DNA of 64,000 nucleotides, from IMG/VR virus record IMGVR_UViG_3300034025_000120, positions 1-64,000 of that record; one strand, 5' to 3'. Made by a program: the position numbers and the translations under genes. Shown piece after piece: positions 20,112-49,508 of the stretch (position 1 is the first letter of the stretch; every line of letters begins with the position of its first letter). Origin of the DNA: a virus. Under the pieces are notes generated by a model. It worked only from the letters and a program-made list of their open reading frames with translations, was not told the origin of the DNA and did no database searches.

Positions 20112-21407
20112 TTGGGCGTTGGCGTTGAGCTTGAAGACTTCGATAACTTGTTTCGACTTCACAACCGCAGGACCAAGGTCATCTTGAATGATTTGCGGAA
20201 TGCAACCGAAGAAGACCGCAAGAATATCGAGAAGCTTTTGTGCACCCGGTACGACTCCACTGACTTTCTTTCTAATATTCCGTCGTGCGGCTGTGGTGAA
20301 ACCACGGGTGCATATGCGGAAGGGTTGGTGGGCTTCTTGTGCCCCAAGTGCGGGACACACGTAACAAACCAGTTGGAACAGGACTTGGAACCCTTGGTCT
20401 GGATGCGCGCACCAATGGGTGTCGTGGCCTTGCCGAATCCGAATTTCTGGAGCATGCTCTTGGAGCGCTTCAAGTTAAAAGGATTCTGCGTGATCCAGTA
20501 CCTGTGCGACCGGACCTACAAAGCATCGGTGAAGTTCCCACAAGAGCTGCCCCAGATCGATGCACTGGTGCGAACCATCATGAAAGAGCGCGGGTACAAC
20601 AACTTTGTCAATAATTTCGATGCGATGATGCGCGGAATGTTGGCATTGAAAGTGTTCCGTAAAGGCACCAAGAAGCGGGAAGAATTTGATGCATTCCCGA
20701 TCCTGATCCAAGAATCGCGCAAAGCATTGTTTGCGCAACATCTTCCAGTCCCGAACCGCGCCTTGTTTGTGCTTGAAAACACGAACCTCGGTGAGTACGG
20801 CGACATGACGATGAATGGACTCATCAATGCCGTGAACATGATGACCAACATCGATTCTGACTTGAGCGGTTTGAAACCGGCCAAGAAAGAAATCCTGACG
20901 GTCAAGATGCTCAACAGCCTGTGCACTTTCTATGACGATATCTACCGGGATCGGTTGTCGCCGAAGGAAGGTTGGTTCAGGAAGCACGTGTTTGGTAGTC
21001 GTTCGCACTTCAGTTTCCGTGGCGTGATTGCTTCGTTGACGGGTCGGCACGATTACGACGAGATTCATGTCTCGTGGGGGATTGGGGTATCGGTGCTGTC
21101 CTTGCACCTGACCAACAAACTCCTGAAGATGGGATGGAACAATTACGAGATCAACAATCTCTTGTACGAGTATGCCCAGAAATGGCATCCCGTGCTCGAC
21201 CAGTTGTTTAAGGAACTGATTGCAGAAAGCCCGTACAAGGGTATCCCTGTGATCTTCCAGCGTAATCCATCACTGGAACGTGGTTCGGCGCAAGCCATGT
21301 TCATTACGCAAGTGAAGGGGTCAGCAGTACGACCGCAAGATGCAGAAATCCCCACTGTGTCGATGTCGATCCTTAGCGTTACGGGTTTTAATGCCGATTT
21401 CGATGGT
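20112..21407 (+). CDS. multisubunit RNAP beta-prime N-terminal subunit, exon 1
   Basis: TTG start after AGGAG. Zn-ribbon CGCGETTG...CPKCGTH is present. The exon ends at the catalytic motif FNADFDG, after which the frame degenerates. Confidence 0.8.
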
Positions 21408-22807
21408 AAAGTAACAACATTGCCATCGCTAAACTTCTTTAACTGTCTGGAACACCCTGAGAGTCTTGTCAACCACAACGCGGTGCGAAAGCACGATCGT
21501 GACGGTTTGAAAATGACAAGGATTGGGAAACCAGCAGCCAAGCCTCTGTTAAATGAGGAAGGTTCAACGACTATCGAAACCACCCGCAAGGGACAAGGGA
21601 GTAGAGTAGGGTACCAAGCGGACCCGAAACGGGAAGCACTCTTAACAGAGTGAAGATATAGTCTCAACCGGTATGAGAGTATCGGAAGTCATTGTCTGGA
21701 CCACAATGACGGCTAGGGTAGCGCCTAGTAGCTTCTACTAACTTAAAGGAGAGTAATGAATAGAAAACACATTCCAGGAACCACTGGCTTTCAAGCCGAC
21801 AGAGATGGCAACATCTACGATGCATTTGGTAGGAAACGCAATACCTACTTAAATGGGGACGGATACGTTACTGCATCGGTTTATACTAACGACGGTCGTT
21901 GGGTAACTTTCGGTGTACATCGGCTGGTGGCATTAGCGTGGTTGGGCGATAAGCGCGGTCCTGGGTGTGATGAAGTCAATCACCGGGATGGTGATATCAA
22001 GAATAACCGAGTTGAGAATTTAGAATGGGTAACATCCAGTCAGAATAACATCCATTCCGAAATCATGAGACGCTGCAACATTTACCCCACGCTCATGGTG
22101 GAATCAAATGGTGTTGTTAGATTGGCCAACGATGCTTGGGAAGCGCAAAGTTTCACAGGTGTCAGTGCACTAGACATTTGGGACGCCATTAAGGATGGAA
22201 CGGTGGTGCAGGGATTTAAGTTCACGCATTTTCCATACCGGACGAATATCCCAGCGCAGTTACATAAGCCCAAATTAGGTCAGCGCGATGTAAATGGCAG
22301 AATGATCGAACGGGCTATCAAGACGTTGGATATTGATACCGGTGAGATCGAAGTGTTCACTTCGTTTGCTAAAGCGGCTGCTAGATACAATACCACTGCT
22401 AGTCAATTGCATCTTGCCATTCCGCGACGTGGCGAAGTGCGGGTGTTTAGAAAGAAATACCAAGTCGAGTACATGGATCAAGATTTTCCAGAGATGACTC
22501 TGGAAGAACTGGCTCGTGCAAAGAATCGCGGACCACGGTCTGTACTGGCGTATAACACCGTCACAAAGAAGTATTCGATTTACGAGAGCGCCAAAAGTTT
22601 CATTGCTGCAAATGAATTAAGTAAGAAAGCAGTAACCACCTCCCTTGTGAAAGGGAAGTTGCGGCAGGTCGGCGACTGGGTGGCCGTGTATGTAAATACA
22701 GAAAACACAGAAAAGCTCAAAGAGTATGTGAAAGGTCCAGCGGACACGCACTCTTCCTGACAACAGTAGAAGCGATAAAAGCACAGCAATGTGTACAATG
22801 AAATTTG
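21408..22807 (+). mobile_element. group I intron carrying an HNH homing endonuclease ORF
   Basis: The 5' exon ends in U. The exon end GAUGGU can pair with intron GCCAUC (21422-21427) to form P1 with a U.G wobble at the splice site. The conserved core element AAGATATAGTC is at 21653-21663. The last intron nucleotide is G (22807). Joining the exons restores NADFDG-D. Confidence 0.8.
21756..22760 (+). CDS. HNH homing endonuclease (NUMOD4-like N-terminus, HNH, C-terminal HTH repeats), intron-encoded
   Basis: Motifs are HIPGTTGFQADRDGNIY and HRLVALAW...VNHRDGDIKNNRVENLEWVTSSQNNIH. GGAGAG RBS. It is more AT-rich than the flanking DNA. Confidence 0.85.
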   Translation: MNRKHIPGTTGFQADRDGNIYDAFGRKRNTYLNGDGYVTASVYTNDGRWVTFGVHRLVALAWLGDKRGPGCDEVNHRDGDIKNNRVENLEWVTSSQNNIHSEIMRRCNIYPTLMVESNGVVRLANDAWEAQSFTGVSALDIWDAIKDGTVVQGFKFTHFPYRTNIPAQLHKPKLGQRDVNGRMIERAIKTLDIDTGEIEVFTSFAKAAARYNTTASQLHLAIPRRGEVRVFRKKYQVEYMDQDFPEMTLEELARAKNRGPRSVLAYNTVTKKYSIYESAKSFIAANELSKKAVTTSLVKGKLRQVGDWVAVYVNTENTEKLKEYVKGPADTHSS

Positions 22808-23035
22808 GATCAGCAAAACGGCACGCTGTCGATTGACCACATGACGACCGAGCAATTGGGCCGTCTCGCACCACACATGAGCGCCTGCGGTTTAGATGGC
22901 GTCCGGACGCTTTCACGTAACCTGTCCATTCCGAAGACAGTGATCGCGACCATGGCCAACTGGCTGCATTGGGAAGAAGAACCATTGACGGAGGAACAAC
23001 ATCGCAAGATGGCGTTGATTCCGACTCTGGATTAA
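22808..23035 (+). CDS. RNAP beta-prime N-terminal subunit, exon 2
   Basis: Begins GAT CAG (D-Q), which completes NADFDGDQ (compare E. coli NADFDGDQM). 75 codons to the stop. Confidence 0.75.
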   Translation, partial: DQQNGTLSIDHMTTEQLGRLAPHMSACGLDGVRTLSRNLSIPKTVIATMANWLHWEEEPLTEEQHRKMALIPTLD

Positions 23036-23051
23036 GAAAGAGAGGAAAGCT

Positions 23052-23696
23052 ATGATGCAATCAGGTATGATGAGTCCAGGCATACTGGATGAGTTCAGTG
23101 TCATGGCCTATGCGCAAAAGAATGTCAATACGGTGCAGTTTCTGCAAAACCGGTTTCAAGATACGTTCGCAAATGCCAGTAACATCTTAACCGATGCGGG
23201 CAGAACGTTCTTTGAAACCAGCCGTAAAGCGTTCGAATACGTTACTGGTGCTGAAGCTGTACGCTTCAGTAATGGTGTGTTGCGCAAGGTCAAGAACATG
23301 TTTCAGCGCAATGAGTTCCGGGAATTGGATACCGTGGCAGAGGTACAACAGTCGCCCCAGGTCATGCATCGCTGGCTGATGGCGCAAGAGAATCTGCGAA
23401 CACTGTATCTGGACCAACGATGCTGTGGGTTTGAAGGGACCTACCAGAATCTGGACGGAAACGATGTGGGCCGTGAACACCGTGACTGGCGGTTGCTGAA
23501 CGACGGTCTGGTCCGTGATGACGCAGAACACGGCTGGGTACAGTCGTACTTCTGCGATGCACGGGAAGAACGCCCAGCGGTCGACTATGTCAATGCTGAC
23601 ATGAAGTTTACGGTCAGTTCGGCGTGGGATTTGATTGCCGGTGCCATTGAAGTGGGTGACGATGACCCAAGTTCGCCATTTGGCGACAAGCTGTAA
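23052..23696 (+). CDS. hypothetical protein
   Basis: 214-aa ORF with AGAGGAAAG RBS. Confidence 0.6.
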   Translation: MMQSGMMSPGILDEFSVMAYAQKNVNTVQFLQNRFQDTFANASNILTDAGRTFFETSRKAFEYVTGAEAVRFSNGVLRKVKNMFQRNEFRELDTVAEVQQSPQVMHRWLMAQENLRTLYLDQRCCGFEGTYQNLDGNDVGREHRDWRLLNDGLVRDDAEHGWVQSYFCDAREERPAVDYVNADMKFTVSSAWDLIAGAIEVGDDDPSSPFGDKL

Positions 23697-23709
23697 GGAA
23701 GCCCCCATA

Positions 23710-23754
23710 AGAAGCTCTATCCGCCGTCACTGGTAGATAGAGCTTCTTTTTTTT
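23710..23754 (+). terminator. rho-independent terminator
   Basis: AGAAGCTCTATC / GATAGAGCTTCT 12-bp stem followed by T8. Confidence 0.75.
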
Positions 23755-23808
23755 CGTCGATTCTATGTGCCGATACCGTTTCCTTCTTTTTCCTTACAGG
23801 ACTTCCCC

Positions 23809-24219
23809 ATGCCACAAAATGATGTTGCCACCCTGTCACTGGCCGGTTATGTCAAGACGCCGGCTGAAAAAGCCGACACCTTGATGGCCCACGCCCAAGC
23901 GTCCGACAAAAGCCAAACGGCCTTGTACGGAAACGCTGTGATCAGTCTCGCGTGGTTGTTTGAACAATACAGTGCTGACCTTGGTAAACTCTGCGAAGAA
24001 ATCAAGAACGGGTACTTGGGTTTGTTTAGCCGCTACTTTGATAATGTCGATGTCGATGCTACCCTCGACGCCAGTACCAACGAAAACCGTCTGACGCTGC
24101 GTTTGTACATCTCCTTCATGCAAGATGGCAAATCGTACACAGTCGGCCACTTGCTGTATGGCTTGAATGGCAAATACGATAAAATGGTCAAGCTGAAAGC
24201 CTACGGCGCGACCTCTTAA
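23809..24219 (+). CDS. hypothetical protein (start uncertain)
   Basis: ORF 23767-24219. The first ATG is at 23809 and the RBS is weak. Confidence 0.5.
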   Translation: MPQNDVATLSLAGYVKTPAEKADTLMAHAQASDKSQTALYGNAVISLAWLFEQYSADLGKLCEEIKNGYLGLFSRYFDNVDVDATLDASTNENRLTLRLYISFMQDGKSYTVGHLLYGLNGKYDKMVKLKAYGATS

Positions 24220-24239
24220 ATCACAAGAAAGGAACACCA

Positions 24240-24842
24240 ATGCAAGACCCTACCAAAGGTCCCATCAATTACGCCGCCATCACACGCGATGAGTTGATTG
24301 CGGAGCGTTCGCAACAGATTCAAACGATCTCGCAAAGCTTGACCACGTCCCCGCCGCGCGAAGAAGCGCCGCGCCGTATTCAAGAAACCATCTTCAAGGA
24401 AGTGTTCTTGCCGCTCTTCATGGGCAAACCCAACGAACGCTATCCGGAAATCCAAGCGGCCAACTGGATCACGGTTGCTGGTTCTCCGCACGCCGAAGTC
24501 GAGGTCGTGGATCACACGAATACCATCGTGTTCGTGGTGCCACCACTGATCGAAAGTGAGCAGGTAGCACCGATCACCGGGAAGCTCGATGTCGACATGA
24601 GCTTCGTCACCGGGCAAGCCAGACTGTACGGCAACAGTCTGCCACAAGTGGCGGAAAACTACTTGATGGAAGAATTAACTAAGCGGACTTCATATATGAA
24701 GAGCAATGCCGATGTGTCCGCAACCATGACCGCGTGGAAGAAAATCTTCGCCTACTACGGTCTTTTAAAAGCAGCGGATGTCGCGGCCACCCCAAACAAC
24801 AAACCGCCGATCGACCTCGACTATGAAGATGTCCCGCCCTGA
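24240..24842 (+). CDS. hypothetical protein
   Basis: 200-aa ORF with AAGAAAGGAAC RBS. Confidence 0.6.
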   Translation: MQDPTKGPINYAAITRDELIAERSQQIQTISQSLTTSPPREEAPRRIQETIFKEVFLPLFMGKPNERYPEIQAANWITVAGSPHAEVEVVDHTNTIVFVVPPLIESEQVAPITGKLDVDMSFVTGQARLYGNSLPQVAENYLMEELTKRTSYMKSNADVSATMTAWKKIFAYYGLLKAADVAATPNNKPPIDLDYEDVPP

Positions 24843-25950
24843 ACTGAACATCCTAAACATAGGCGATATCCATTTCCTCCATCGCCTTGTTTCCGCATCG
24901 TCCATCATCGATAACCTGGACACGGTCTTGAATGATCCCGTTGAGACCGCCAAGATTGACATGATTTGTTTTACCGGAGACGTCTTCGATTCCCGAGGAA
25001 GTCTCGATGACCCCGCTGTTCCCCGCATTCAAGAGTGGATGGCCCGTGTGCTGAAGAAAGCCAAACAGCACGATATCCTGGTGCGCGTACTGAAAGGTAC
25101 GCCTTACCATGATTGGGAGCAATCACAACTGTGGGAGAACATCAACGCAATTGCCGACATTGGCGCTGACCTCAAATACGTGAAAACCGTCTCCATCGAG
25201 TACATAGAGCGCTATGGGATAACCATGCTCTATGTACCCGATGAGGCCAATCCGTCCACCGAAAAAACCCTCAGCCAAGTCCGCGAATTACTGCGTGCCA
25301 AGGGGCTAGATCAAGTTGATTTCGCCATGATGCACGGTCAATTCGATTACCAGTTAGATGTCCAATTGGACAAGTTTAAAACCCACGATTCTGACGCATA
25401 TCTCGCGTTGGTGCGTGAGCTTATCATGGTGGGTCATGTGCACACGTATAGCCGCCATGACCGGATTATCGCACCCGGTTCGTTTGACCGTTTAGCCCAA
25501 GGCCAAGAAGAAGCCAAGGGCCATGTGCGTATCTGTGCCCGTCAAAATGGCGAGTACGATGTGGAGTTCCGTGAGAACAAGGGTGCCAAACGCTTTGTCA
25601 CGGTGCCTTGTAAGGGACTGGACTTGGCTGACACCAATGCCCAGATTGACAAGTATGTAAAAGACTTGCCGATCGATTCTTACGTGCGGGTGGAAGCAGA
25701 TGTGGGCAACCCCATCTTACTTAACATGCAACAAGTAATGCTCCGGCATCCTGCATTTAACTGGTCGAAGATTGCAAGAAAAGAAAAGAAATCACAAGAG
25801 GCCGCCACGGACAAGGTAAAAGAAGCATACCAACACGTGGCATTAACGAAAGATAACCTTGGCGGTATGCTGTTAGCCCGTGTCGCTGGTGTCACACCAG
25901 CCCCTGCGGTACTAGAAGCTGCGCGCCGTTTAATTGGGGAGGTATTATAG
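24823..25950 (+). CDS. Mre11/SbcD-like metallophosphoesterase nuclease
   Basis: Calcineurin-like motifs appear in order: NIGDIHF, FTGDVFDS, MMHGQ, MVGHVHT. The start overlaps the upstream gene end. Confidence 0.75.
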   Translation: MKMSRPELNILNIGDIHFLHRLVSASSIIDNLDTVLNDPVETAKIDMICFTGDVFDSRGSLDDPAVPRIQEWMARVLKKAKQHDILVRVLKGTPYHDWEQSQLWENINAIADIGADLKYVKTVSIEYIERYGITMLYVPDEANPSTEKTLSQVRELLRAKGLDQVDFAMMHGQFDYQLDVQLDKFKTHDSDAYLALVRELIMVGHVHTYSRHDRIIAPGSFDRLAQGQEEAKGHVRICARQNGEYDVEFRENKGAKRFVTVPCKGLDLADTNAQIDKYVKDLPIDSYVRVEADVGNPILLNMQQVMLRHPAFNWSKIARKEKKSQEAATDKVKEAYQHVALTKDNLGGMLLARVAGVTPAPAVLEAARRLIGEVL

Positions 25951-26790
25951 ATGTCTCTCGCAGATTACCCTGGCCGCACGACGGGCCAGTTTCCGATCTC
26001 GGTGGCCACCTCGCTGGCCATTGAAGCCGCCCTCGGGATTTACCCGGAACGCCCTGAAGACCCCGCGCCGATTCTGCAATACGAAGAATTCTGGATTAAC
26101 CTGCGGACCTTGTTCCGTAACCTGCACGGTTCGTTCGACAAAGGCGTGGCGGAAACGGTGAGTATTGCTACTTACGCTGAAGCCATCAACGACGAGATGA
26201 CGCAGATTCACGAGATCATCACCGGCAAGACGAATGGCTTGACAAAGGTGATCTACTATATCAGTGATTACACCGATATCGACAAGAAGTATCCGTACGC
26301 AGTGACCCGGCGGGATAACACTACTCGTCAGAAGCTGTTTACATCCATGTTGAAAGATACCATGGATAAGTTGTTGAAGATGCACCCCGAAGGTAATATC
26401 CGGAAGGTGCGGTTAAAGCTCAAGCCTGAGCATAAAACCAAAGCAATGATCTTGACCCATATTGCGTTTGATTTAGTCTCGTATCTGGACTTCAAGGAAC
26501 TGACCTTGCTGGAAAGTCATACAGGGGCCATCAAGTCACGTAGTTCTTGGTTTTCGAAGTACTACGAAGGCAAGACCCTCTCGATGATTCCTTTCCGGGA
26601 AGACTTCTTGCAAGTGTTTGGTGACAACGAATTCTTCCGTCCCGCTGATAAAAAGCTGCGCCAAGAAATCGTTGATCTCGCTGTGAAGTATCGCTGGTCG
26701 GCAGTAACGACCGATGAAAAAATCAATTACGGCATTCAGCAAATCAAGAATCCATATGCTCTCGAAGTTCTGAGAAGCATGCTGGTGTAG
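25951..26790 (+). CDS. hypothetical protein
   Basis: 279-aa ORF with GGGGAGG RBS. The ATG abuts the upstream stop. Confidence 0.6.
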   Translation: MSLADYPGRTTGQFPISVATSLAIEAALGIYPERPEDPAPILQYEEFWINLRTLFRNLHGSFDKGVAETVSIATYAEAINDEMTQIHEIITGKTNGLTKVIYYISDYTDIDKKYPYAVTRRDNTTRQKLFTSMLKDTMDKLLKMHPEGNIRKVRLKLKPEHKTKAMILTHIAFDLVSYLDFKELTLLESHTGAIKSRSSWFSKYYEGKTLSMIPFREDFLQVFGDNEFFRPADKKLRQEIVDLAVKYRWSAVTTDEKINYGIQQIKNPYALEVLRSMLV

Positions 26791-26885
26791 GGCCATTTCC
26801 GGCGTAGGGTTAAAATTTACGTATCCGTAGCATCATGTAGATAAGCTACTACGCCACAACCACAACAAAATAGAAGGAGGGCCAC

Positions 26886-27710
26886 ATGGCCGATTTCCAA
26901 CAAAATAACCGCCCCAAAGTGCCGAAGACGCTTTTGGACGATCCATTCCTCGCCCTGAGCGCACCGTGTCCGACGGCAGCTGGCGAAGCACAGAACCGCA
27001 AGTCGAAGCTGTTCGTGATGCTGAAAAAGAATGGCCCGCAAAGCCTGCGCAACCCGCACATGGTCGTCAAGACCGGTTGCCCAACCGAACAAGACCAGTC
27101 CACCGATTACGGCAAGATCATCGCGCCGTTCGACTTCGGTACCTGGGGTACGGCGATGGAACTGATCAGCGAAGCGGTCGACTGGGAACCGGGCAAGCGC
27201 ATGTCGATCATCAGCAAGAACACGGTGTTCGTGGCCGGCAAGCGCTCGAACGAGCCCCTGCCACAAGCCACCGTCATCGTGGGCAAAGACAAAGACGGCA
27301 TCATCTGCCTCAGCATCAAGCACTTCAAAGAAGGCCGTCCCGTCATCGTCTTCAAGATGCTGCCGCCGGCAGGCTTCTTCGACTTCAAGAACGCGGACGG
27401 CACGCCAGTCTCCGACGCAGTCATCTCGAAGTGGTACGCGAAAGCCTACGTCAAGCGCATGCAGGCCGTGGTCAGCCAGCTGATGGTCGACACCTACGAA
27501 GAGCCTGCGCCGTACGATCCGAACAACCGCGGTGGCAACAACGGCGGTGGCGGCGGCAACAATAACAACAACCGCGGTGGTGGTGGTGGTGGCGGTGGTG
27601 GTAACAATAACTTCCGCGGCAATAGCGGCGGCGGTGGTGGCAGTGGCGGTAACAGCGGTGGTGGCGGGAACGACAGTTGGGGTGGCGGCGACGACGACAT
27701 TCCGTTCTAA
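26886..27710 (+). CDS. SSB-like protein: divergent N-terminal domain, Gly/Asn-rich linker, C-terminal DDDIPF tip
   Basis: AGAAGGAGGG RBS and GC3-rich codon use. The C-terminus reads ...GGGGNDSWGGGDDDIPF, identical in its last six residues to the E. coli SSB tip. Confidence 0.7.
   Translation: MADFQQNNRPKVPKTLLDDPFLALSAPCPTAAGEAQNRKSKLFVMLKKNGPQSLRNPHMVVKTGCPTEQDQSTDYGKIIAPFDFGTWGTAMELISEAVDWEPGKRMSIISKNTVFVAGKRSNEPLPQATVIVGKDKDGIICLSIKHFKEGRPVIVFKMLPPAGFFDFKNADGTPVSDAVISKWYAKAYVKRMQAVVSQLMVDTYEEPAPYDPNNRGGNNGGGGGNNNNNRGGGGGGGGGNNNFRGNSGGGGGSGGNSGGGGNDSWGGGDDDIPF
27523..27690 (+). repeat. coding low-complexity (GGN)n/(AAY)n tract
   Basis: Runs such as GGTGGTGGTGGTGGCGGTGGTGGT encode the SSB linker. 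The tract generates several spurious overlapping ORFs on both strands. Confidence 0.8.
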
Positions 27711-27723
27711 GTAAGTGGTCAGC

Positions 27724-27758
27724 AAAAAAGCTGGGTGGTTTTCCCACCCAGCTTTTTT
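27724..27758. terminator. bidirectional-type terminator
   Basis: AAAAAAGCTGGGTGG-TTTT-CCCACCCAGCTTTTTT. Confidence 0.75.
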
Positions 27759-27792
27759 GCCTAGTGGTGTGTGCTACACAAAAAATTCATAG

Positions 27793-27803
27793 TCACATAT
27801 CAC
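27793..27803 (+). promoter_or_regulatory. recurrent CACATATCACC motif (candidate phage promoter)
   Basis: AGTCACATATCACCGTGGTG lies about 40 nt upstream of the TTG start at 27844. It sits within the listed antisense ORF 27774-28007, which is not called here. Confidence 0.4.
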
Positions 27804-27843
27804 CGTGGTGTGCTGGTAAACATAGTGTTTTAGGGAGAGACAT

Positions 27844-29397
27844 TTGAAGATCATCGTCAAACAACAAAGCATCGAAGAAGACCGCGTGCTTATCTCTGTC
27901 GTCCATAATAACGAAGAGTTAGACTGGGTGGTAGACTTCTTGGAAACCGCCAACAAATCCAAGAAGACGGTTTTCGCTGCCAAGGTTGATCCGTACGATC
28001 TGATCAACCGTTACTGGGAAACGCTTTCGCCGAGCCGGCAAGACCGTATCTTTGACGTGTACCGTCAGATTAACGACATCTTCGGTTCGGTCTTTGTGTA
28101 TGAAGACATGACACGGGCGTTGATTCCGTTGGTGGCGCAGTTGATCGATCTGCACGGGATCGACGAAGTAAAGAACTGGGCAGACTTCCGCAGCAATGCG
28201 TACATCCCGCCGAACGACCCAAAACTCTTGGTGTCGTACGATGTGGCCAATACAAGTAAGAAGCCGCGTGAAGGTACGTACCTGCTCGAAGACTACAAGT
28301 GGCTGATCGCCATTTCGATCTTGGTGCGTTGCGTGATCCCAATCTGGGGCACGTACATCCACCGGGTTCAGCGCTTGGTCGGTACGAACTTCAAGGAGTA
28401 CAAAGCCTACCAGTTGCTGAACCAATCGGACCTCTTCGAACACCCCGCCATGGCGAAGTTGCGCGACTACGTCCGCTTCAACACCAAGCCAGACCAAGTC
28501 AAGATGTCCGCGATGCAGCGCGGCCTATCCACGGAAGAGTATCCCGAATGGATGCTGGGCGTTGTTGCAGTACGAAAACTCGGCTGTCTGGACTTCCTTA
28601 ACCGGGAAGCCACGACGTCGTGTATCACGGTGTTGTTTAATTACATCGCGCACAAGCTGAAGAATAGCGACAATAGCTTTGGCGGTGCGATCACCGAAAA
28701 GAAGTTCGAAGGCACCCAAGGTGAGGGCGAGAACAATCTGTCCACACTCGAAGGTTACCGTACACCACAAGCAATCGCTCAGGGTAACATCACCGCGTTT
28801 CAGGTGTACGCAGAAAAGACCGGTGTCATGGCCCAGCAGCTTTGTCCAGGCATCGATCTGAAAATGGTCCAACGCTGCGTTAATTCGGTACGCCAATTGC
28901 ACGGCGGTGTGCCAACCGACGAACAGTTGATGATCATGCAAGTGACGGTGAAGAAAGTCTTGTCACCGCAGTCGCTCAAGCTACTGAACCACGAAACCAT
29001 TATGGGAGTGATGGGTGTCGTGCAAGCAGTACTGTGGCACCGGGGGTTTCCAGAGTTGGCGGCGGCCGCCACAGCCAAGCGCGATGAACTGGGAACGGCG
29101 AGTGGACCTGACCACCGTGCACGTATCTTGGATGTTCAATTAGAAGAATTGCGCGCTCTGTATCCATTCCAGCGCCGCTTGACGTCTAAGCCGAAACAAG
29201 AACAAAAGAATGTTGCACAACAAGAAATTGAAAATATCGAAAAGGAGCTGAGCAAAAAGAACTGGACATTGACCATGCCTAAGGAATGGGTAATGGAAAT
29301 GAACCGGAGTGAAGTCAACCGTAGGTTTTCAGTGCCAAGCAATTTCCGGATTCGCTTGGCGGATTTAGTCATTACCGTAGCAAAGGGGGAATTTTAA
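27844..29397 (+). CDS. hypothetical 517-aa protein
   Basis: TTG start after GGGAGAG. Long uninterrupted ORF. Confidence 0.6.
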   Translation: MKIIVKQQSIEEDRVLISVVHNNEELDWVVDFLETANKSKKTVFAAKVDPYDLINRYWETLSPSRQDRIFDVYRQINDIFGSVFVYEDMTRALIPLVAQLIDLHGIDEVKNWADFRSNAYIPPNDPKLLVSYDVANTSKKPREGTYLLEDYKWLIAISILVRCVIPIWGTYIHRVQRLVGTNFKEYKAYQLLNQSDLFEHPAMAKLRDYVRFNTKPDQVKMSAMQRGLSTEEYPEWMLGVVAVRKLGCLDFLNREATTSCITVLFNYIAHKLKNSDNSFGGAITEKKFEGTQGEGENNLSTLEGYRTPQAIAQGNITAFQVYAEKTGVMAQQLCPGIDLKMVQRCVNSVRQLHGGVPTDEQLMIMQVTVKKVLSPQSLKLLNHETIMGVMGVVQAVLWHRGFPELAAAATAKRDELGTASGPDHRARILDVQLEELRALYPFQRRLTSKPKQEQKNVAQQEIENIEKELSKKNWTLTMPKEWVMEMNRSEVNRRFSVPSNFRIRLADLVITVAKGEF

Positions 29398-29398
29398 C

Positions 29399-30916
29399 AT
29401 GTTGCAAATGAAACCAATTGAAGAACAGATCGGGGTATCGAAGTTTCTGGTACAAGAGTCGTCCTCGTACAAGCCGCAATACCGGCGCTCGTACGAAGCG
29501 CGCATTACCGGCAACATCCATGACCTGATCGCCGCCCGGTTCCGTAACATCAAAGGACCGGTTGCGACCGGCGCCTTGGCCTCAGGTGTGGCCGATTCGT
29601 TCTTGGTGCCCAGCATGCAAGGGACACCAGTGGCGATGCCGGCCATGCAGGGGCAAGGCATCAATACCCAAGGTAACTGGGACATGCCGGTTTACCGTGC
29701 CCTGCTGCATGTGAGTGCACGCGCCGAAACCGGCCATTACGTGGACTTCGTGCTGACTGCGTTTAGCGACCCAGTCGATCGTTCCATGATGGGTAGCCTC
29801 AACCCGCGCATGCCGTTTTATATTTCGACAGTCAGCGTACTGCGAAAGTTCAACGATCGCAGTACTGGTGTCTCGGTGCCAGTGACAGCGCTTGGCAGTG
29901 CGTCGCAACTGATCGCCGACAACAAGTTCGCCGGCTTTAACAAGGGCCACGACTTCCGCATCCGCCCGATGGATGTATTTAGCTATATCGGTCACCAGGC
30001 ACTCGATCTCGGAACGCCACAGTCAGAAATCTATGATGAACGCACGGTCGTGACCGAAACGCCCATCCATTCCGAGGTACGCAATCAGTTGCCGGGTGTG
30101 TTCGTCTCGAAAGTGCTCGGCGCCTATGCAGCAGCCCATGAAAGCTCGGGCGAGATCGGTGGCACGGGTTACGACAAGATCAGCGAAGCCCAGGGCGTGA
30201 TCCAAGAGCAAGAAGCGGCTACCAACATGTTCCTGCGCGCCCTGCGCAATATCCGGGGCAACGGGTTCAATGAATCTGTCCGGAATTACTTCACGCTCGA
30301 AGAACTGCAAAAGCTGTCGCCGAACGAGCACACGCTGCGTCCGCGCATCGTTCCGTTGTCGAGAGACGTGATCGAAGCACGCGCCCAAGGACCGGGTGAA
30401 AACTGGGGCGCCGCCCAGCCATTGCAACAAATGGCATCGTTCATCAAGGATGCAGTGCCGGCCCTGATGATGGAAAACATGCTGATGCGTGCGCATATCA
30501 AGGTTAGCAATATGGTGTATGCCACCGGCCAACCAGTGGCCCAAGTGCTCGATTGGGCCACATTCTCGGATGTCGATGTGACCCAGCAGATTCTGGCACT
30601 GGAACAACGCATTGTGCGGGAAGTGTTCATGCCTCTGTCCGAGCAGAACCAGCGCACGCTCGATTTGGATTTGTATATGTTTGTCGATAGCGACAGCCGT
30701 ATCAATATCTCGGTCGATGGCCATCCCGCTGTCCCCTTCGTCTCGCCGACCTTTGCCGGTTCGCTGCTGTCGCCTGTCGTTACTTCGAACGCCCAAGCCG
30801 CTTTCACCATGGCCGAAGAGTTCAAGACCTTGGGCGACATGATTGCCGATGCAGGCACGCAATTGCCTACCCTCAAGGGTGCGGTCTACCAAACTGGCGG
30901 TAAGAAAGCCTTCTAA
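29399..30916 (+). CDS. hypothetical 505-aa protein
   Basis: The ATG lies 1 nt after the upstream stop, with AAGGGGGAA RBS. Confidence 0.65.
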   Translation: MLQMKPIEEQIGVSKFLVQESSSYKPQYRRSYEARITGNIHDLIAARFRNIKGPVATGALASGVADSFLVPSMQGTPVAMPAMQGQGINTQGNWDMPVYRALLHVSARAETGHYVDFVLTAFSDPVDRSMMGSLNPRMPFYISTVSVLRKFNDRSTGVSVPVTALGSASQLIADNKFAGFNKGHDFRIRPMDVFSYIGHQALDLGTPQSEIYDERTVVTETPIHSEVRNQLPGVFVSKVLGAYAAAHESSGEIGGTGYDKISEAQGVIQEQEAATNMFLRALRNIRGNGFNESVRNYFTLEELQKLSPNEHTLRPRIVPLSRDVIEARAQGPGENWGAAQPLQQMASFIKDAVPALMMENMLMRAHIKVSNMVYATGQPVAQVLDWATFSDVDVTQQILALEQRIVREVFMPLSEQNQRTLDLDLYMFVDSDSRINISVDGHPAVPFVSPTFAGSLLSPVVTSNAQAAFTMAEEFKTLGDMIADAGTQLPTLKGAVYQTGGKKAF

Positions 30917-30956
30917 ATAAAACGACCCTAGTAAAACAGGGTCAGAAAGGAATAAC

Positions 30957-32348
30957 ATGAAATTGAATGATTTCTACGTGCAATTGATGCACGCGCTGGG
31001 GTTGGTGGTCGATACCGATGGTTTCGTTTCCCGCAAAGAAGGGGACAAAATCGTGCCGTTGACCATCAAGGACCAACGCCTCGTGCTGCCATTCGATGCG
31101 CAAATGCAAAACCCGGACTTCTCGGCGCGCATCGCGTTCAACCCGCTGTACGAATCGTTGACGCGCAAAGAGTCGCCCGTGCACGAAGCGTTCCGCACGA
31201 TCCTGAACATCCGGCTGAACACCATCTTCGGTATCTTGCTGGGCACCTTGCTCAAAGTATCGCGTGATACCGACAAGCACGCGCACCTGAAGCCTGAACA
31301 GACGGAATTTCTGTCCTTCGTCAAGAAGGTCGACAAGGATTCGCTGAAGAACTACGAGAAGATGATCAAAGCCTTTGTCGATGAAGACTCGATCAAGGGC
31401 TATGCCGATCTGCTCGATGCGTTCCCTGGCGACCGGGCGCTGGTCAACATCTACAGCAAAAACGGCGGCGTGGTCAATGCCTTGCAAGAAGATGGCAGCT
31501 TCAAGGCCGAGAAGTTTTCGCGCGCTGCAATCGTCAGCTTCCCGGCGTACGAAGCGCTGGCCGCAGCAAAAGACGGCGTGGTGGCAGCGCCTGGCAAATC
31601 CCTGAAGATGCGGCCGAAGGACATCGACGCGTTCAAGAAAGTCATGGAATACCTGATCCCGAACATCGCCAAGAAAGACTACTACCACGTCGGTAGTTTG
31701 TCCCAAATGGCACCGATCATGGAATCCGTGCTGAAGGCCGCCGCCAAGTTGTTCGGTTACTTCAACGAGCAACTCGAACTCTTCGCTGACCAGATCGCCG
31801 GCGCCGAAGACCTGATCGTGCCGATGGACTGGGTTGACGAGATCGACCGGAACATCGGCGCGCTCTATACCCAGGCACGCCGGGTCGGTATGCTCGAAGG
31901 CAATGAAGGCCAGGTCGTGAATGCACCGGCAGCGGCACAACCGGCAGCCACTGCCCCAGCCCAAGCGGCACCAGCACCAGCACCCAAAAAGCAAACCCTG
32001 ATCAATCCGATCACGGGCGAGCCAGTCGTGGTGTCCGGTGCACCAGTTGCAGCGTCGCCTTTCCCGGTACCAGCGGCCGCCCAGCCTTGGGCACCGCCAC
32101 CCGCATTTAACGGCAACGCGCAGCCATGGAATGGTGGTTACCAGCCGACACCACCTGCACCACCGTCGATCGTGAAAGCCAACGGTAAGGCGGACTTCAT
32201 GGCGATCTTGGCCAACAATCCAGCGCTGGCCCAACAAGTCGGTGTCTCGACGCAGTCGTTCCAGGGGCAGTATCAATCGCCACAAACCCGTACGCCGGGC
32301 TGGGCACAGGGTGCGGGTTACAGCGCCCCTGTGAACAAACCTTTCTAA
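30957..32348 (+). CDS. hypothetical 463-aa protein with Ala/Pro-rich C-terminal third
   Basis: GAAAGGAA RBS and GC3-rich codon use. Low-complexity segment APAAAQPAATAPAQAAPAPAPKK. Confidence 0.65.
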   Translation: MKLNDFYVQLMHALGLVVDTDGFVSRKEGDKIVPLTIKDQRLVLPFDAQMQNPDFSARIAFNPLYESLTRKESPVHEAFRTILNIRLNTIFGILLGTLLKVSRDTDKHAHLKPEQTEFLSFVKKVDKDSLKNYEKMIKAFVDEDSIKGYADLLDAFPGDRALVNIYSKNGGVVNALQEDGSFKAEKFSRAAIVSFPAYEALAAAKDGVVAAPGKSLKMRPKDIDAFKKVMEYLIPNIAKKDYYHVGSLSQMAPIMESVLKAAAKLFGYFNEQLELFADQIAGAEDLIVPMDWVDEIDRNIGALYTQARRVGMLEGNEGQVVNAPAAAQPAATAPAQAAPAPAPKKQTLINPITGEPVVVSGAPVAASPFPVPAAAQPWAPPPAFNGNAQPWNGGYQPTPPAPPSIVKANGKADFMAILANNPALAQQVGVSTQSFQGQYQSPQTRTPGWAQGAGYSAPVNKPF

Positions 32349-32350
32349 TG

Positions 32351-32395
32351 CGGCATAAAAAGGTCGAATCCCTAAGGGGTCCGACCTTTTTTCTT
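32351..32395. terminator. bidirectional terminator with CGGCATAAA 5' flank
   Basis: CGGCATAAAA, then AGGTCG...CGACCT stem, then TTTTTC. It lies between convergent genes. Confidence 0.65.
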
Positions 32396-32415
32396 TGTAC
32401 GGTAATGCAATGGGT

Positions 32416-32754
32416 TTATGTCACGCCATTGGAACTGGTGACAGCTTGGCGGATATTGTCCACCACCTTGTAATCGGGGACGACAAGGTACGCAAGGTCT
32501 TCGGGCACGATCTGGGCCGATTCAAGTTCATTCATCCGGCGCACGCAGTAGTGATACTGGCGCGGGATATTGATAGCGGTAAACAAACCGTAGAGATCGC
32601 CTTGGAAACGTTCGATGTCCTTGGGAGAGAGATTGACGACTTCGTTGTTTGGATGATTTCGCAAGAAGGTCATGTGGTCGTCAATGGCATTGCGTACCGC
32701 CAAGGTGTAATAGGAAAGCGCCCCGGAGTCTGGCATGAGGTCATTAATGTCCAT
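32416..32754 (-). CDS. hypothetical protein
   Basis: 112-aa ORF. It is an isolated minus-strand gene, with GGACAACC upstream of the ATG. Confidence 0.55.
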   Translation of the reverse strand: MDINDLMPDSGALSYYTLAVRNAIDDHMTFLRNHPNNEVVNLSPKDIERFQGDLYGLFTAINIPRQYHYCVRRMNELESAQIVPEDLAYLVVPDYKVVDNIRQAVTSSNGVT

Positions 32755-32778
32755 GGTTGTCCTGTAGAAATTTAAAGT

Positions 32779-32789
32779 GACATATTACC
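32779..32789 (+). promoter_or_regulatory. recurrent GACATATTACC motif (candidate phage promoter)
   Basis: About 80 nt upstream of the RNAP beta gene start. Confidence 0.45.
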
Positions 32790-32867
32790 TAAGTGTAGTA
32801 GAACCACGAATTGGTATCATACAAAGAGTTTGTTGTTATAACACGAACGAAAAGGAAGACAACGAAA

Positions 32868-34091
32868 ATGCCATATGGACAAAATCCATCAGCACTGTAT
32901 CTAATCAAGCACGAACCCAACGAACTGCGGCGTGAGTTCTTGGGCGTATGCGCGCTTAATCCTTGGTTCGCCCACGATTCTTCGCCACGCCAGCAAATGT
33001 TTGCCAGCCACTTAGGGCAAGCACTGGTGTTCAAAGGAATCGGTCGCCGGTATTTCCAAACCGGCATGGAAAGGGAATACGGTAAATACACCTTCTCGGT
33101 CAAGATGCCCACCACAGGGGATGTCATCAAGATCGTTGAACGGTATCGTCGTGGCGTGAGTGCCAGTTCCATCAACCCACCCAAGTCACCCCAAACGATC
33201 CTCATCTACGAGGATTACCAAACCAAGGAAATCGGCTGCATCGATTTGCCGACGCATACTTCGAATCACCCGTATTTTGGTTTTGAATACCAAAGCACCG
33301 ACGCACTGCAAGACTTGATGTGCGGGAAGAAATCGTTTACCGAAGGCCAGATTTTCCTGGATTCTCCTGCAAAGGATAAGAATGGTAACTATGGCTTTGG
33401 CATGGAAACCCCGATCGCTTTCCTCTCGCTACCCGAAACATCGGAAGATAGCGTCTTGGTGTCTGAAGACCTGTTGCCGTTGCTGAAGTTCAAGGTCACC
33501 GAGCGGCGCACCGTGGAATGCGGCCGCGATGCGTTCCCGAAAGGGATGTTCAATTACATCGATGCCAGCGGCAAAGAAGTTTTCAAACCGTTTCCCGAAA
33601 TTGGCGAGTACATCCGCGAAGACGGGCTGGTCATGGCCACGACCCGGTACAACGAGAAGTCGGCGTTGTTTGAAATGGGGATCAACGATGTCAAGACCTT
33701 GAACATTCCGTTCGACCTGCCCTGCTACGCCACCGCGGGCAAAGGCAAGATCGTCGACATCAAAATCTGGCATGACCCGTACAACACGTCCGGGTTAATT
33801 CCTTTTGGCATGGAAGACATGTTCAAGAAGTACGATGGCGGCATGCGCGCCTTCTACTTGGAAATCTATCAGGAGTGGAAACGCTTGCACCGCCAACGCG
33901 GCGCAGCCTTGAAACTCAGCCCTGCCTTTAGTGCTTTGGTCGAAGAAGCCATCGCCATGGTGGGTGAGCACAAAGAACGGATTCACATGCATCGCCGGCG
34001 CAAACCGCTGGATGACTACACGATTGAATTTACGATCGAGTACGACGTGGTCCCGACCGAAGGCTTCAAGCTAACTGATTGCCATGGTGGT
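32868..34091 (+). CDS. multisubunit RNAP beta subunit C-terminal half, exon 1
   Basis: SSPRQQMFASHLGQA (compare bacterial NMQRQAVP). ETSEDSVLVSE (compare FEDSILVSE). The exon ends ...KLTDCHGG inside the HGxKG motif. The ATG at 32868 follows AAGGAAG. Confidence 0.8.
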
Positions 34092-35395
34092 CGACATTAA
34101 GTGAAGATTCATCCATCTCTTTGAAAGGAGGTGGACATGGTAGAAGAGGAATTTAGAGTTGTACCTGGTTATAAAGAATTCAGTGTAAGCAATGATGGAA
34201 TTGTTAAGTTATCGGAAGATAACTCGATAGTTACTTTGTACAGCACTGGAGGTTATTGGACATTTAGCTTACCCAGTAACTATTCAGGATCGACGTTGTC
34301 AGTGCATAGAGCTGTAGCATTGGCATGGGTAGCAAATCCTAATCCAAGTGAATTTAACATCGTCAATCATCTTGACGCTAACCCTGCCAATAATTGGTGG
34401 GGAAACTTGGAATGGACAACCTATTCAGGTAATAATTACCATGCTATAAACAATGGTTTAAGACCGGACAATATTCCCTGTAAAGTGCGAGACTTTATTA
34501 CAGGAGAAGTCTACGAATATAGTTCGATGGCACAAGCTGCCGAAGCCATGGGGTTGAGGAAAGATACATCCATTTATCAGTTATACCCGAAGATGTTTGG
34601 GAAACTGATCGTGAATCGTTATGAATTTAGATTTGCTAATGACTTCACGCCGTGGTTCTATGAAAGTAGAAAGTATCAGATTCGACCTGCACGCTATATG
34701 GTGATTGTTACCGATGTCGAAGAAAATACCAGGGAAATTTTCTCAAATGCGACATTGCTCAAGGAATATCAGCTGTACGATAGTCCAGGTAAGTCGATAC
34801 CAGCGTTAGCGGAACACGGGAACCAGATATATCCCCATTTGAAATTCAGTGTACGAGACAGTTATGCGGAGGAACGTTTCCGCGTGATGCGTCAAACGAA
34901 AGAAAGTCGATCAATGCCAATCAAAGCTAAAAGCGGAGAACGGACCATCGACTTTGGTTCACTGACTCAATGCGCTAACTACTTTAAAGTTGATCGATCC
35001 AGTATTACAAATCGTTTAAATAACGATAAGAATTTGGATGGATGGACCTTCACTCAGTCAGCCTCTTTAGCTAGTAATGGCTAAAGAAACTTCCTTTAAT
35101 TGACCGGAAATAACCTGAGAGCCTTGTACACCAAGCCAATACCAAAAGTATTGGTGGCCAGCGTAACGAACTGGGTATGGTAACAGAGACAAGGATTGGA
35201 GAACCGGCAGCGAAGCTCCCAACGGGAGAACGTTCAACGACTAAGACCTTACCAGTCTGTAGGATCAAGCGATCCGAAATGGGGAACACCCGAACCAGCG
35301 ATGGAGGGTGAAGACATAGTCTCGACATCCGGCTAACAGCCGGAGCTGCGCGTAATGGCGCGGGTTAGGTGTAGCGAACCTAGTTGAAGGTATCG
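34092..35395 (+). mobile_element. group I intron carrying an HNH homing endonuclease ORF (exact junctions inferred)
   Basis: The 3' part (35073-35395) shares blocks with the intron at 21408-22807: CCTGAGAG, GACAAGGATTGG, GTTCAACGACT and GTGAAGA(T/C)ATAGTCTC. The junction 34091(U)|35396, preceded by G at 35395, restores HGG-KGIICKI. I could not identify a P1 guide sequence. Confidence 0.7.
34137..35084 (+). CDS. HNH homing endonuclease, intron-encoded
   Basis: AGGAGG RBS. Motifs are FRVVPGYKEFSVSNDGIV (NUMOD4-like) and VHRAVALAW...VNHLDANPANNWWGNLEWTTYSGNNYHA. It is markedly AT-rich. Confidence 0.85.
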   Translation: MVEEEFRVVPGYKEFSVSNDGIVKLSEDNSIVTLYSTGGYWTFSLPSNYSGSTLSVHRAVALAWVANPNPSEFNIVNHLDANPANNWWGNLEWTTYSGNNYHAINNGLRPDNIPCKVRDFITGEVYEYSSMAQAAEAMGLRKDTSIYQLYPKMFGKLIVNRYEFRFANDFTPWFYESRKYQIRPARYMVIVTDVEENTREIFSNATLLKEYQLYDSPGKSIPALAEHGNQIYPHLKFSVRDSYAEERFRVMRQTKESRSMPIKAKSGERTIDFGSLTQCANYFKVDRSSITNRLNNDKNLDGWTFTQSASLASNG

Positions 35396-36331
35396 AAAGG
35401 CATTATCTGCAAGATCAGGCCAGCGCACGAAATGCCGGTGGACGAAGCAGGAAACCGGGCCATGATTGCGATGGACCCGAACTCGACTGTGTCGCGCATG
35501 AATATCGGACGGCTCTACGAGCAGTTCATGAATGCATCGCGCCGCGATACCCGCAAAGCACTGTCGGCCATGCTGGGCATCGAGCACCATGATCCAAAGG
35601 CGGTGGTCAAGGTCCATGAACTCCAGCAACGCGATCCTGCCACCTTTAACAAGGCGTGGGATTACCTGCTCGGGTTCTATAAGATCGTCTCGCCACAGCA
35701 GTACAACTGGCATGTCACCGGCGAATACCGCGATCCACCTGCGACCCATCTGGGCAAAGTGATTGCGGATGATCTGTTTGTGTTCTTGCCGACGGAGAAT
35801 GACCCAGAGTCGGAGCAAATCGTTCATGACCTGTGGAAGTATTATCCACCTACCTACGGCCCCGTGCAGTATGTGGGTAATTCCGGGAAGCTGCGTACTA
35901 CCCGCGAAAAGGTCATGATTGCTGAGATGTATGTCATGTTGCTGGAGAAGATCGGTGACGATTGGACGGCAGTGGCGTCTGGCAAGACCCAGCACTTTGC
36001 GGTGTTGTCGCAAATGACGAATGCGACCAAGTATTTGCAGCCGACACGCAATTCGCCGGTCCGGACTGACGGGGAAGCAGAGAAGCGCATCTTTGTCTCG
36101 TATTGCGGTTGGCAATTGGCATCGGAACGCCATGACCGGAATAACAACCCGGCCACGCACAAAGAAGTGACCTACTCGATTCTGACGGCCGATCGACCAA
36201 CAGACATCAAGTGCGCCGTGAACCGCAAGAAGAATCCGCTGGGCCAAGACCGTCCACTGGTCATGGTCAAGCACATGCTGCAAACCGGCGGTACCAAGGT
36301 CACCTATGAAGACGTGGGCTTTGTTCACTAA
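35396..36331 (+). CDS. RNAP beta subunit C-terminal half, exon 2
   Basis: KGIICKIRPAHEMPVDEAGNRAMIAMDPNSTVSRMNIGRLYEQ aligns by eye with bacterial KGVISKI..DMP.DE.G...DI.LNP.GVPSRMNIGQ. Confidence 0.8.
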   Translation, partial: KGIICKIRPAHEMPVDEAGNRAMIAMDPNSTVSRMNIGRLYEQFMNASRRDTRKALSAMLGIEHHDPKAVVKVHELQQRDPATFNKAWDYLLGFYKIVSPQQYNWHVTGEYRDPPATHLGKVIADDLFVFLPTENDPESEQIVHDLWKYYPPTYGPVQYVGNSGKLRTTREKVMIAEMYVMLLEKIGDDWTAVASGKTQHFAVLSQMTNATKYLQPTRNSPVRTDGEAEKRIFVSYCGWQLASERHDRNNNPATHKEVTYSILTADRPTDIKCAVNRKKNPLGQDRPLVMVKHMLQTGGTKVTYEDVGFVH

Positions 36332-49436: not shown

Positions 49437-49508
49437 TTAGTTTAGTGTAATTATTCACTTTAACCTCCCTATCTATATGTGTTAAACATTAAAATAGGGA
49501 GTTTTAAC

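Follow-up and report, generated by a model that had tools for sequence, protein, structure and literature searches.

Two endonuclease-bearing group I introns in the RNA polymerase genes of a jumbo phage as probable independent members of a modular intron pool

The 64,000 nucleotides analysed here (the window, in whose positions all coordinates are given unless stated otherwise) form the start of a 224-kb IMG/VR record with terminal repeats, IMGVR_UViG_3300034025_000120. The window encodes a chimallin homologue (18059-20017, by Pfam) and several pieces of multisubunit RNA polymerase (RNAP), which indicates a nucleus-forming jumbo phage. Two of its RNAP genes are interrupted by group I introns: intron 1 (21408-22807) in a beta'-like subunit gene that lies directly downstream of the chimallin gene, and intron 2 (34092-35395) in a beta-like subunit gene. 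Both introns carry an open reading frame (ORF) for an HNH endonuclease, at opposite ends of the ribozyme core. The original prediction regarded the two cores as paralogous, and offered two explanations for the arrangement, namely intron duplication followed by ORF relocation, or independent invasion of sister ribozymes by related endonuclease genes. Our analysis, which draws on sequence comparison and predicted folds, suggests with considerable confidence that the homology between the two introns does not go beyond membership of the same family, and that they represent different ribozyme lineages and are not duplicates of each other. We further consider it very likely that they are mobile, modular group I introns of a known kind, whose ORFs were acquired independently in separate lineages.

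Results

The cores of introns 1 and 2 share only 55-59% identity (0.55-0.59), compared with 67-73% to introns elsewhere. The core of intron 1 is 0.68-0.73 identical to that of Serratia phage 2050HW (Sm2050HW) and 0.66-0.70 to that of Aeromonas phage D3 (AeroD3), and the core of intron 2 is 0.67-0.73 identical to that of a third group I intron in the same genome and 0.71 to V30, an ORF-less IMG/VR intron in a virion-RNAP gene. Maximum-likelihood trees built from 15, 21 and 24 cores put introns 1 and 2 on different sides. In the 24-core tree, a starred branch (97/97) places intron 2 in a clade of 12 rows without intron 1, and a clade uniting introns 1 and 2, the grouping that had been named before any tree was built, was rejected by the approximately unbiased (AU) test with each sample (p 0.004, 0.0008 and 0.0003 for 15, 21 and 24 sequences, respectively). 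The periphery of the two ribozymes also differs: in the P5abc extension of intron 2, 41-44 of 58-59 positions match introns of the clade of intron 2 (clade B), as against only 18 of 44 for intron 1. The proposal that the cores are paralogues or sisters is contradicted by these results. Even in the segments that hold the sequence blocks shared by the two introns, intron 2 is about equally similar to all eight relatives, with the exception of the phiKZ gp72 row, whose 5' half aligned poorly. A pattern scan of IMG/VR returned 10 loci, and an exact 23-mer scan of the same database returned no match.

The shared blocks themselves are real, and they mark homologous parts of the ribozyme. Blocks 2 to 5 start at 21456/35114, 21515/35188, 21562/35232 and 21650/35308 (intron 1/intron 2), and each occurs once per intron, in the same order, and nowhere else in the 64 kb on either strand; they are thus unique in the window and collinear, at the positions originally described except that the last pair begins one base earlier. 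The CTTC(C)TTTAA part of block 1 lies on the + strand at 21434/35090. A direct core-versus-core blastn comparison gave three collinear high-scoring segment pairs (E 7e-7, 8e-6 and 1e-3). An exception is the GCTAAA string that had been included in block 1: it corresponds to the end of the internal guide and J1/3 in intron 1 but to the 3' strand of P2 in intron 2, so the two copies are not homologous. The same string is found at 16 places in the window. In an alignment of 15 introns from Pseudomonas, Serratia, Aeromonas and Escherichia phages, located in RNAP, DNA polymerase and terminase genes, block 1 (its CTTC(C)TTTAA part) maps to P3 and J3/4, block 2 to P5 and the 5' strand of P5a, block 3 to the 3' strands of P5a and P5, block 4 to J6/7 and the 5' strand of P7, and block 5 to J8/7 and the 3' strand of P7. 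The 42-pair structure comprising P3, P4, P5, P5a, P6, P6a, P7, P7.2 and P8 is paired in 97.9% of cells across the 15 introns, and 27 of the 42 pairs show compensatory change; slid versions of the structure never exceeded 46% paired, and none of 500 shuffles scored as high. P9 was excluded from this count, being out of register in the MAFFT alignment. The blocks therefore fall in homologous helices, and the ribozymes are homologous. However, GTTCAACGACTA is invariant in 15 of 15 introns and AGATATAGTCT is one base off in a single row, and since these blocks (4 and 5) are near-invariant in all 15 introns, they reveal nothing specific to the pair.

A similar picture emerges for the endonucleases. 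All three HNH proteins encoded in the window match PHROG 59, that of intron 2 at 1.5e-32. The intron 1 protein (334 aa, ORF 21756-22760) matches Pfam HNH_3 with 37.2 bits (2.3e-9) and PDB 1U3E, I-HmuI, at 5.7e-7. The intron 2 protein (315 aa, ORF 34137-35084) scores 18.6 bits with HNH_3, under the cut-off of 24.8, and matches 1U3E at 8.9e-5 in an alignment that brings the His and Asn positions into register; its C-terminus matches NUMOD1 (26.5 bits, cut-off 22.8) and scores 25.3 bits with I-HmuI_NUMOD-like, under the cut-off of 27. A NUMOD-type C-terminal module scores only 12.1 bits in the intron 1 protein. Both ORFs are full length and free of stop codons. Whereas the HNH assignment made earlier for these proteins is borne out, the NUMOD4-like N-terminus attributed to them is not matched in Pfam: no NUMOD4 (PF07463) hit was reported for any of the three HNH proteins at E <= 1, although the N-termini of both intron proteins align with I-HmuI residues 2-50, and PF07463 is present in some homologues. 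The three proteins share 27-40% identity over their first 100-180 residues only, and the identity between the two intron proteins (~36%) is confined to ~96 aa. In homologue searches, by contrast, each of the two has its own large, full-length subfamily, with identities of 40-56% (and one homologue at 94%) for the intron 1 protein, and of 49-63% for the intron 2 protein, whose homologues include PHIKZ072 (phiKZ gp72; 49% over 97% of the length). The notion of paralogous endonucleases is consequently right with respect to a common I-HmuI-like HNH family, but the two belong to separate subfamilies. These subfamilies were drawn from large homologue searches because the HNH phylogeny that had been suggested as a check, run with 11 proteins, did not resolve, and neither of the two clades tested was rejected.

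The combination of elements found in each intron recurs in other phages. Intron 1 groups with the same-site introns of Aeromonas phages D3 and PS1, and Erwinia phage pEa_SNUABM_54 probably provides a further counterpart; a clade of these four cores was not rejected (p 0.36). The intron of D3 occupies the same beta' position (directly after GADFDG) and, unlike intron 1, contains no ORF, while PS1 and pEa_SNUABM_54 show the order of intron 1, that is, core, HNH ORF and a short exon 2. Endonucleases of this group are 30-38% identical to that of intron 1 over the full length, those of PS1 and pEa_SNUABM_54 being at 33-38%. The phiKZ gp55/gp56 intron (phiKZ/PA7) also has the core-then-ORF order of intron 1. 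However, the beta' intron of the phiKZ-type phages (phiKZ, PA7, fnug and PS119XW) appears to lie 3 nt downstream (after NADFDGD, as judged from P1 pairing) and forms a separate starred clade, and the phiKZ/PA7-type endonuclease is only 24% identical to that of intron 1.

For intron 2, the closest arrangement is found in the beta gene of phiKZ and PA7, where the insertion point, directly after CAUGGUGGU and between HGG and KG of the protein, is identical. The phiKZ intron (gp71/gp72/gp73, in a non-virion RNAP gene) resembles intron 2 in three respects: its ORF, gp72, comes after gp71 and the 5' splice site but before the core; the same closing helix, CAUCCAUC/GAUGGAUG, is present; and the ORF runs through the guide and ends inside P2. 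The PA7 intron at this site retains the closing helix and lacks the ORF. The differences are that intron 2 has a P5abc-like extension and an extra P1a, and that the phiKZ/PA7 core is short. Moreover, the core of intron 2 groups with ORF-less virion-RNAP introns, not with the phiKZ/PA7 core of its own site; a clade of intron 2 with the latter received an AU p of 0.026, which is marginal given the long branch and the position of both inside the 12-row clade. The two non-virion RNAP introns of phiKZ have the same ORF placements as introns 1 and 2, so the "opposite ends" are simply the phiKZ layout. More generally, other chimalliviruses show each of the two combinations again, with matching site, ORF position and subfamily of endonuclease.

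A whole-genome scan revealed the third group I intron outside the window (G000 201747-202055, RF00028 57.7 bits), with limits read as 201709-202099 (L018:1463-1853). It is ORF-less, lies after GADGDD in a virion-RNAP beta-like gene, and carries a long, ORF-free P1-extension hairpin. Its site aligns with that of the Serratia 2050HW intron and is the same as that of the PhiPA3 gp210 intron. Of all sequences in the genome it resembles intron 2 most; no tree contained a clade of these two introns, but such a clade was not rejected (p 0.24-0.43).

Presence or absence of the introns in related jumbo phages had been proposed as a check, and both proved to be absent from the three nearest genomes, in which the two genes are continuous and no similarity to either intron is found. 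This is compatible with their having been gained or lost recently as mobile elements. Among the 19 ribozymes scored on the tree, the ORF switches at least 7 times between absence, a 5' position and a 3' position; for instance, PS119XW, with no ORF, and fnug/PA7, with a 3' ORF, have nearly identical cores. The virion-RNAP site, in turn, is occupied by both ribozyme lineages. Phage group I introns are classically seen as modular in just this way, with separate histories for core, ORF and site. The codon at the junction is GGU in the two intron alleles (21405-21407 and 34089-34091) and GGC in four of five alleles of intron-less relatives (L020-L024); because the U at position -1 is needed for the P1 wobble, this U/C difference may mark co-conversion or immunity to homing. 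In a sliding comparison of exon identity with intron-less relatives (~80% DNA identity), no clear co-conversion dip was seen at the junctions.

The limits of the introns were set by alignment to the uninterrupted genes of Burkholderia phage FLC9, the nearest cultured relative (~47% protein identity), and confirmed with three far closer uncultured IMG/VR genomes (93%, 82% and 74-76% aa identity); they agree exactly with those originally given. The exons, both introns and all their parts lie on the + strand. Exon 1 of the beta'-like gene (20112-21407) ends in ...GFNADFDG and is 47% identical at the amino acid level to the uninterrupted FLC9 gp381, and 93% and 82% identical to uninterrupted genes on two IMG/VR contigs, with a weak Pfam RNA_pol_Rpb1_2 match; exon 2 (22808-23035), placed by FLC9 and the IMG/VR relatives, starts with DQQNGT..., and the junction 21407/22808 splits the motif between NADFDG and D. 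Exon 1 of the beta-like gene (32811-34091) ends in ...FKLTDCHGG and is 44% identical to FLC9 gp370; exon 2 (35396-36331), supported by Pfam RNA_pol_Rpb2_6, FLC9 and the relatives, starts with KGIICKI, and the junction 34091/35396 falls between HGG and KG. This gene is unbroken in the three IMG/VR relatives. In both genes the joined exons align end to end with their uninterrupted homologues, the reading frame being restored. Both introns are preceded by U and have G as their last base, and both upstream exons end in GGU. No near-identical record turned up when the two loci were compared with the phage collection by megablast.

Intron 1 is 1400 nt long, with its omega-G at 22807, and is recognized by RF00028 with 82.7 bits at 21377-21685 (gathering score 50) as well as by the junction alignments. 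P1 (21401-21428, from sequence and fold) is formed by exon CGAUGGU (21401-21407) and guide GCCAUCG (21422-21428), with the wobble pair U21407-G21422. There is no P2, and J1/3 leads straight into P3. The core extends from P3 to P9 (21434-21685, by RF00028 and alignment), with P7 formed by 21569-21573 and 21659-21663; P7.1/P7.2 between P7 and P3' are IA-like, P7.1 is long, and P5b is small. Minimum free energy (MFE) folds of both introns were run with the ORF replaced by a GAAA tetraloop. In that of intron 1, the core is followed at 21688-21739 by P9.1 (21688-21710), P9.2 (21713-21728, with a GUAGCG loop) and the 5' strand of P9.3, GCUUCUACU (21731-21739), which pairs with AGUAGAAGC (22765-22773) and encloses the HNH ORF in the P9.3 loop; the segment 22765-22807 comprises this 3' strand, a small GCAA hairpin and the 3' splice site (sequence and MFE fold). 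An AAGGAG ribosome-binding site lies just 5' of the ORF. The ORF thus comes after P9, which agrees with the 3' location first assigned to it.

Intron 2 is 1304 nt long, with its omega-G at 35395 (RF00028 and junction alignments). Its MFE fold (-43.2 kcal/mol) contains three stacked helices around the ORF: a short P1, a 7-bp P1a and an 11-bp P1b. The 5' strands (34089-34118) are those of P1, GGU, then C and GAC across the splice site (34089-34095), P1a, AGUGAAG (34100-34106), and P1b, UUCAUCCAUCU (34108-34118); the 3' strands (35036-35063) are those of P1b (35036-35046), P1a (35048-35054) and the P1 guide, GUC A GCC (35057-35063). The wobble pair is U34091-G35061, and the exon contributes only 3 pairs to P1. 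The sequence of P1b is common to intron 2 and the phiKZ gp72 intron. P2 (35064-35087, sequence and MFE fold) is a 10-bp hairpin with a GUAA loop, whose 3' strand contains the stop codon of the ORF (35082-35084). The ORF precedes P3 and sits in the loop of the extended P1, in line with the earlier descriptions of it as 5' of the core and as within or next to P1, and its final 16 codons double as P1b', P1a', the guide sequence and most of P2; translation of this tail and folding of P1/P2 should be mutually exclusive. The core (35091-35344, P3 to P9, by RF00028 and alignment) has its P7 at 35239-35243 with 35317-35321, and the periphery comprises P2, a P5abc-like extension (35128-35187) with a GGUAUGG motif, and a short P7.1. 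The 3' part (35346-35395), read from the sequence, consists of P9.1 (35346-35363), P9.2 (35366-35382, with a GUAGCGA loop) and a 13-nt 3' tail; the local MFE fold pairs it differently. P9.1 is nearly identical to that of the third intron.

Three further features of these structures deserve mention. The overlap of the ORF tail with P1b' to P2 (35036-35084), together with a DGW(T/I)F motif at the C-terminus, is also found in phiKZ gp72 (L036:3101-3151). A hairpin at 34117-34130, CUCUU-UGAA-AGGAG, could mask the ribosome-binding site from which the endonuclease of intron 2 is translated; such a hairpin would compete with P1b and is absent from the MFE fold. The GUAGCG motif occurs on the + strand at 21714 and 35366, and the P9.2 hairpin with a GUAGCG(A) loop is shared by both introns of the window and that of phiKZ gp72 (L036 ~3385-3405), although they have different core lineages; it may be a conserved element for a tertiary contact or for the 3' splice site.

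The third HNH gene of the window (49479-50504, I-HmuI-like) lies directly after an RNAP subunit gene (48123-49436) that is full length (PHROG 2962 positions 1-432 of 433). As no group I signal was found near 49479-50504 and the upstream RNAP gene is full length, this HNH gene is regarded as free-standing.

Discussion

We regard introns 1 and 2 as mobile, IA-like phage group I introns that interrupt a beta'-like and a beta-like RNAP gene, each exactly at a catalytic motif, and that consist of two modules. One is the ribozyme, which is predicted to splice itself out and restore the reading frame; the other is an I-HmuI-like HNH gene, housed in a peripheral loop. The ribozyme strands on either side of this gene would be held together by a long closing helix, P9.3 in intron 1 and P1a/P1b in intron 2. 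If the endonuclease acts like I-HmuI and PhiPA3 gp210, it should nick intron-less alleles of relatives that infect the same cell, resulting in homing or interference; the intron-less alleles of L020-L024 would be candidate substrates. Since the two introns belong to different ribozyme lineages and endonuclease subfamilies, and each has its own same-site counterparts, the opposite ORF ends are best explained by independent acquisitions and not by duplication and relocation. Of the two scenarios of the original prediction, the second comes nearer, as independent invasion is supported, though the ribozymes that were invaded are not sisters.

It would be tempting to derive the two introns from a single one by duplication within the genome, with a copy inserted into the other RNAP gene and its ORF then moved from one end to the other. 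The shared blocks in the same order, the GGU before both splice sites, the similar P9.2 hairpins with a GUAGCG loop, and the CCUGAGAG motif and identical P5a stem, both private to the pair, speak in favor of this idea. However, the AU tests reject the clade that it predicts, each core is 10-15 points closer to introns of other phages, the peripheral helices are unlike, and each endonuclease has its own large subfamily. Moreover, phiKZ holds the same two arrangements, so that each has counterparts elsewhere, and a GUAGCG-type P9.2 loop also occurs in its gp72 intron. We therefore regard duplication with relocation as extremely improbable. Hardly more credible, and in our opinion very unlikely, is that both ribozymes are decayed, non-splicing relics, each RNAP subunit being produced as two separate polypeptides, one that ends and one that starts at the motif. 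It is true that natural splits occur at several places in the RNAP subunits of chimalliviruses (PMC7598289), that one study saw no spliced reads for the phiKZ introns (PMC10914365), and that the exon-2 frames have possible TTG starts at 22805 and 35384. Yet the splits would fall within NADFDGD (before its last residue) and between HGG and KG, in sequences that are continuous in FLC9 and the three nearest relatives, and the core helices, U-G wobble, omega-G and closing helices are intact, as are both full-length ORFs.

A more serious alternative concerns intron 2 only, which could be a mosaic of a gp72-type 5' module (P1, closing helix, endonuclease and the ORF tail over P2) and a core of the ORF-less virion-RNAP lineage that is inserted between GADGDD and K. 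Such a mosaic might have arisen inside this phage lineage by recombination between introns or by cassette invasion, with the third intron of this genome as a representative of the core lineage. In its endonuclease, its insertion site, its closing helix and the end of its ORF, intron 2 matches phiKZ gp72, while the best core matches are V30 (0.71) and the third intron (0.67-0.73), both ORF-less virion-RNAP introns, and P9.1 is nearly identical to that of the latter; a clade with the phiKZ/PA7 gp72-site core is also marginally rejected (p 0.026). This p value is weak, however, and the clade of intron 2 with the third intron was neither recovered nor rejected (p 0.24-0.43). The phiKZ/PA7 core is long-branched, no longer has the P5 extension, and belongs to the same starred 12-row clade as intron 2, and fast divergence of an orthologous core would thus explain the data about as well. 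We consider the mosaic a possibility, although a rather unlikely one; if true, it would be a ribozyme-core swap between introns of one genome, caught in the act.

Several points also weigh against our preferred interpretation, the independent acquisition of ORFs by introns of different lineages. The trees rest on a MAFFT alignment of ~270 columns and not on a covariance-model alignment, many of their inner branches are weak, and the sample comprises 24 sequences. CCUGAGAG and the identical 5-bp P5a stem (CUUGU/ACAAG) are private to introns 1 and 2 and missing from their nearest relatives; they could reflect chance or a small gene-conversion patch. In the tree of 11 HNH proteins, which gave no resolution, the end branches amount to 3-4 changes per site. 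A clade of the two intron endonucleases was not rejected (p 0.34), so they could be each other's nearest kin among the few proteins compared. Intron 2 matches RF00028 (35024-35343) with 45.6 bits (E 6e-10), which is below the gathering score of 50, and its group I membership accordingly rests on the core helices, the U-G pair of P1 with the omega-G, and the restored frame. Finally, a long-read transcriptome study of phiKZ, which has three predicted introns, detected no spliced reads for any of them in the conditions chosen (PMC10914365).

Similar arrangements are well known. T4 introns in td, nrdB and nrdD (sunY) and SPO1-type introns have IA-type cores with P7.1/P7.2 and carry ORFs in varied peripheral loops of similar ribozymes, core and ORF evolving independently; the T4 introns interrupt other host genes and encode other endonuclease families than introns 1 and 2. 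For such phage introns, PMC11620839 has Goodrich-Blair & Shub 1994 and Bechhofer et al. 1994 among its references.

Among jumbo phages, gp56, gp72 and gp179 of phiKZ have been predicted intron endonucleases since the phiKZ genome paper of 2002, according to the passages of PMC10914365 that cite it, and PhiPA3 gp210 is a nicking HNH endonuclease in a group I intron of the virion RNAP gene (Birkholz et al., Science 2024, PMC11620839). The gp210 intron resembles intron 2 in its I-HmuI-like HNH ORF located 5' of the core and in its insertion at RNAP catalytic residues. By contrast, its core is on the side of intron 1 in the tree, and it resides in the virion RNAP gene, a site that in the present genome holds the ORF-less third intron.

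Denser clusters of group I cores were also observed. The beta'-like gene of IMGVR_UViG_3300046328_000321 (L028:2694-4150) contains four tandem cores, and that of IMGVR_UViG_3300021167_000382 (L027:3450-4579) three; as these follow the stretch matching exon 1 up to residue 385 and precede exon 2, they point to several introns separated by very short exons near NADFDGD. The phiKZ-gp55 homologue of Pseudomonas phage fnug (L006:1121-3990) has two cores, 2018-2313 and 2466-2770, with one HNH ORF before the first and another after the second, which places a 5'-ORF intron and a 3'-ORF intron ~150 nt apart.

In summary, introns 1 and 2 reveal no new mechanism. The look-alike pair would be two ordinary members of a widespread modular pool of introns among nucleus-forming jumbo phages, a pool that repeatedly targets the active-site codons of RNA polymerase. 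For annotation, the RNAP subunits are to be joined across 21407/22808 and 34091/35396. With three RNAP introns and a free-standing HNH gene in this genome, and two of the introns absent from its nearest relatives, the phage offers a useful natural contrast for the study of intron gain and loss and of competition mediated by endonucleases, as described for PhiPA3 gp210.

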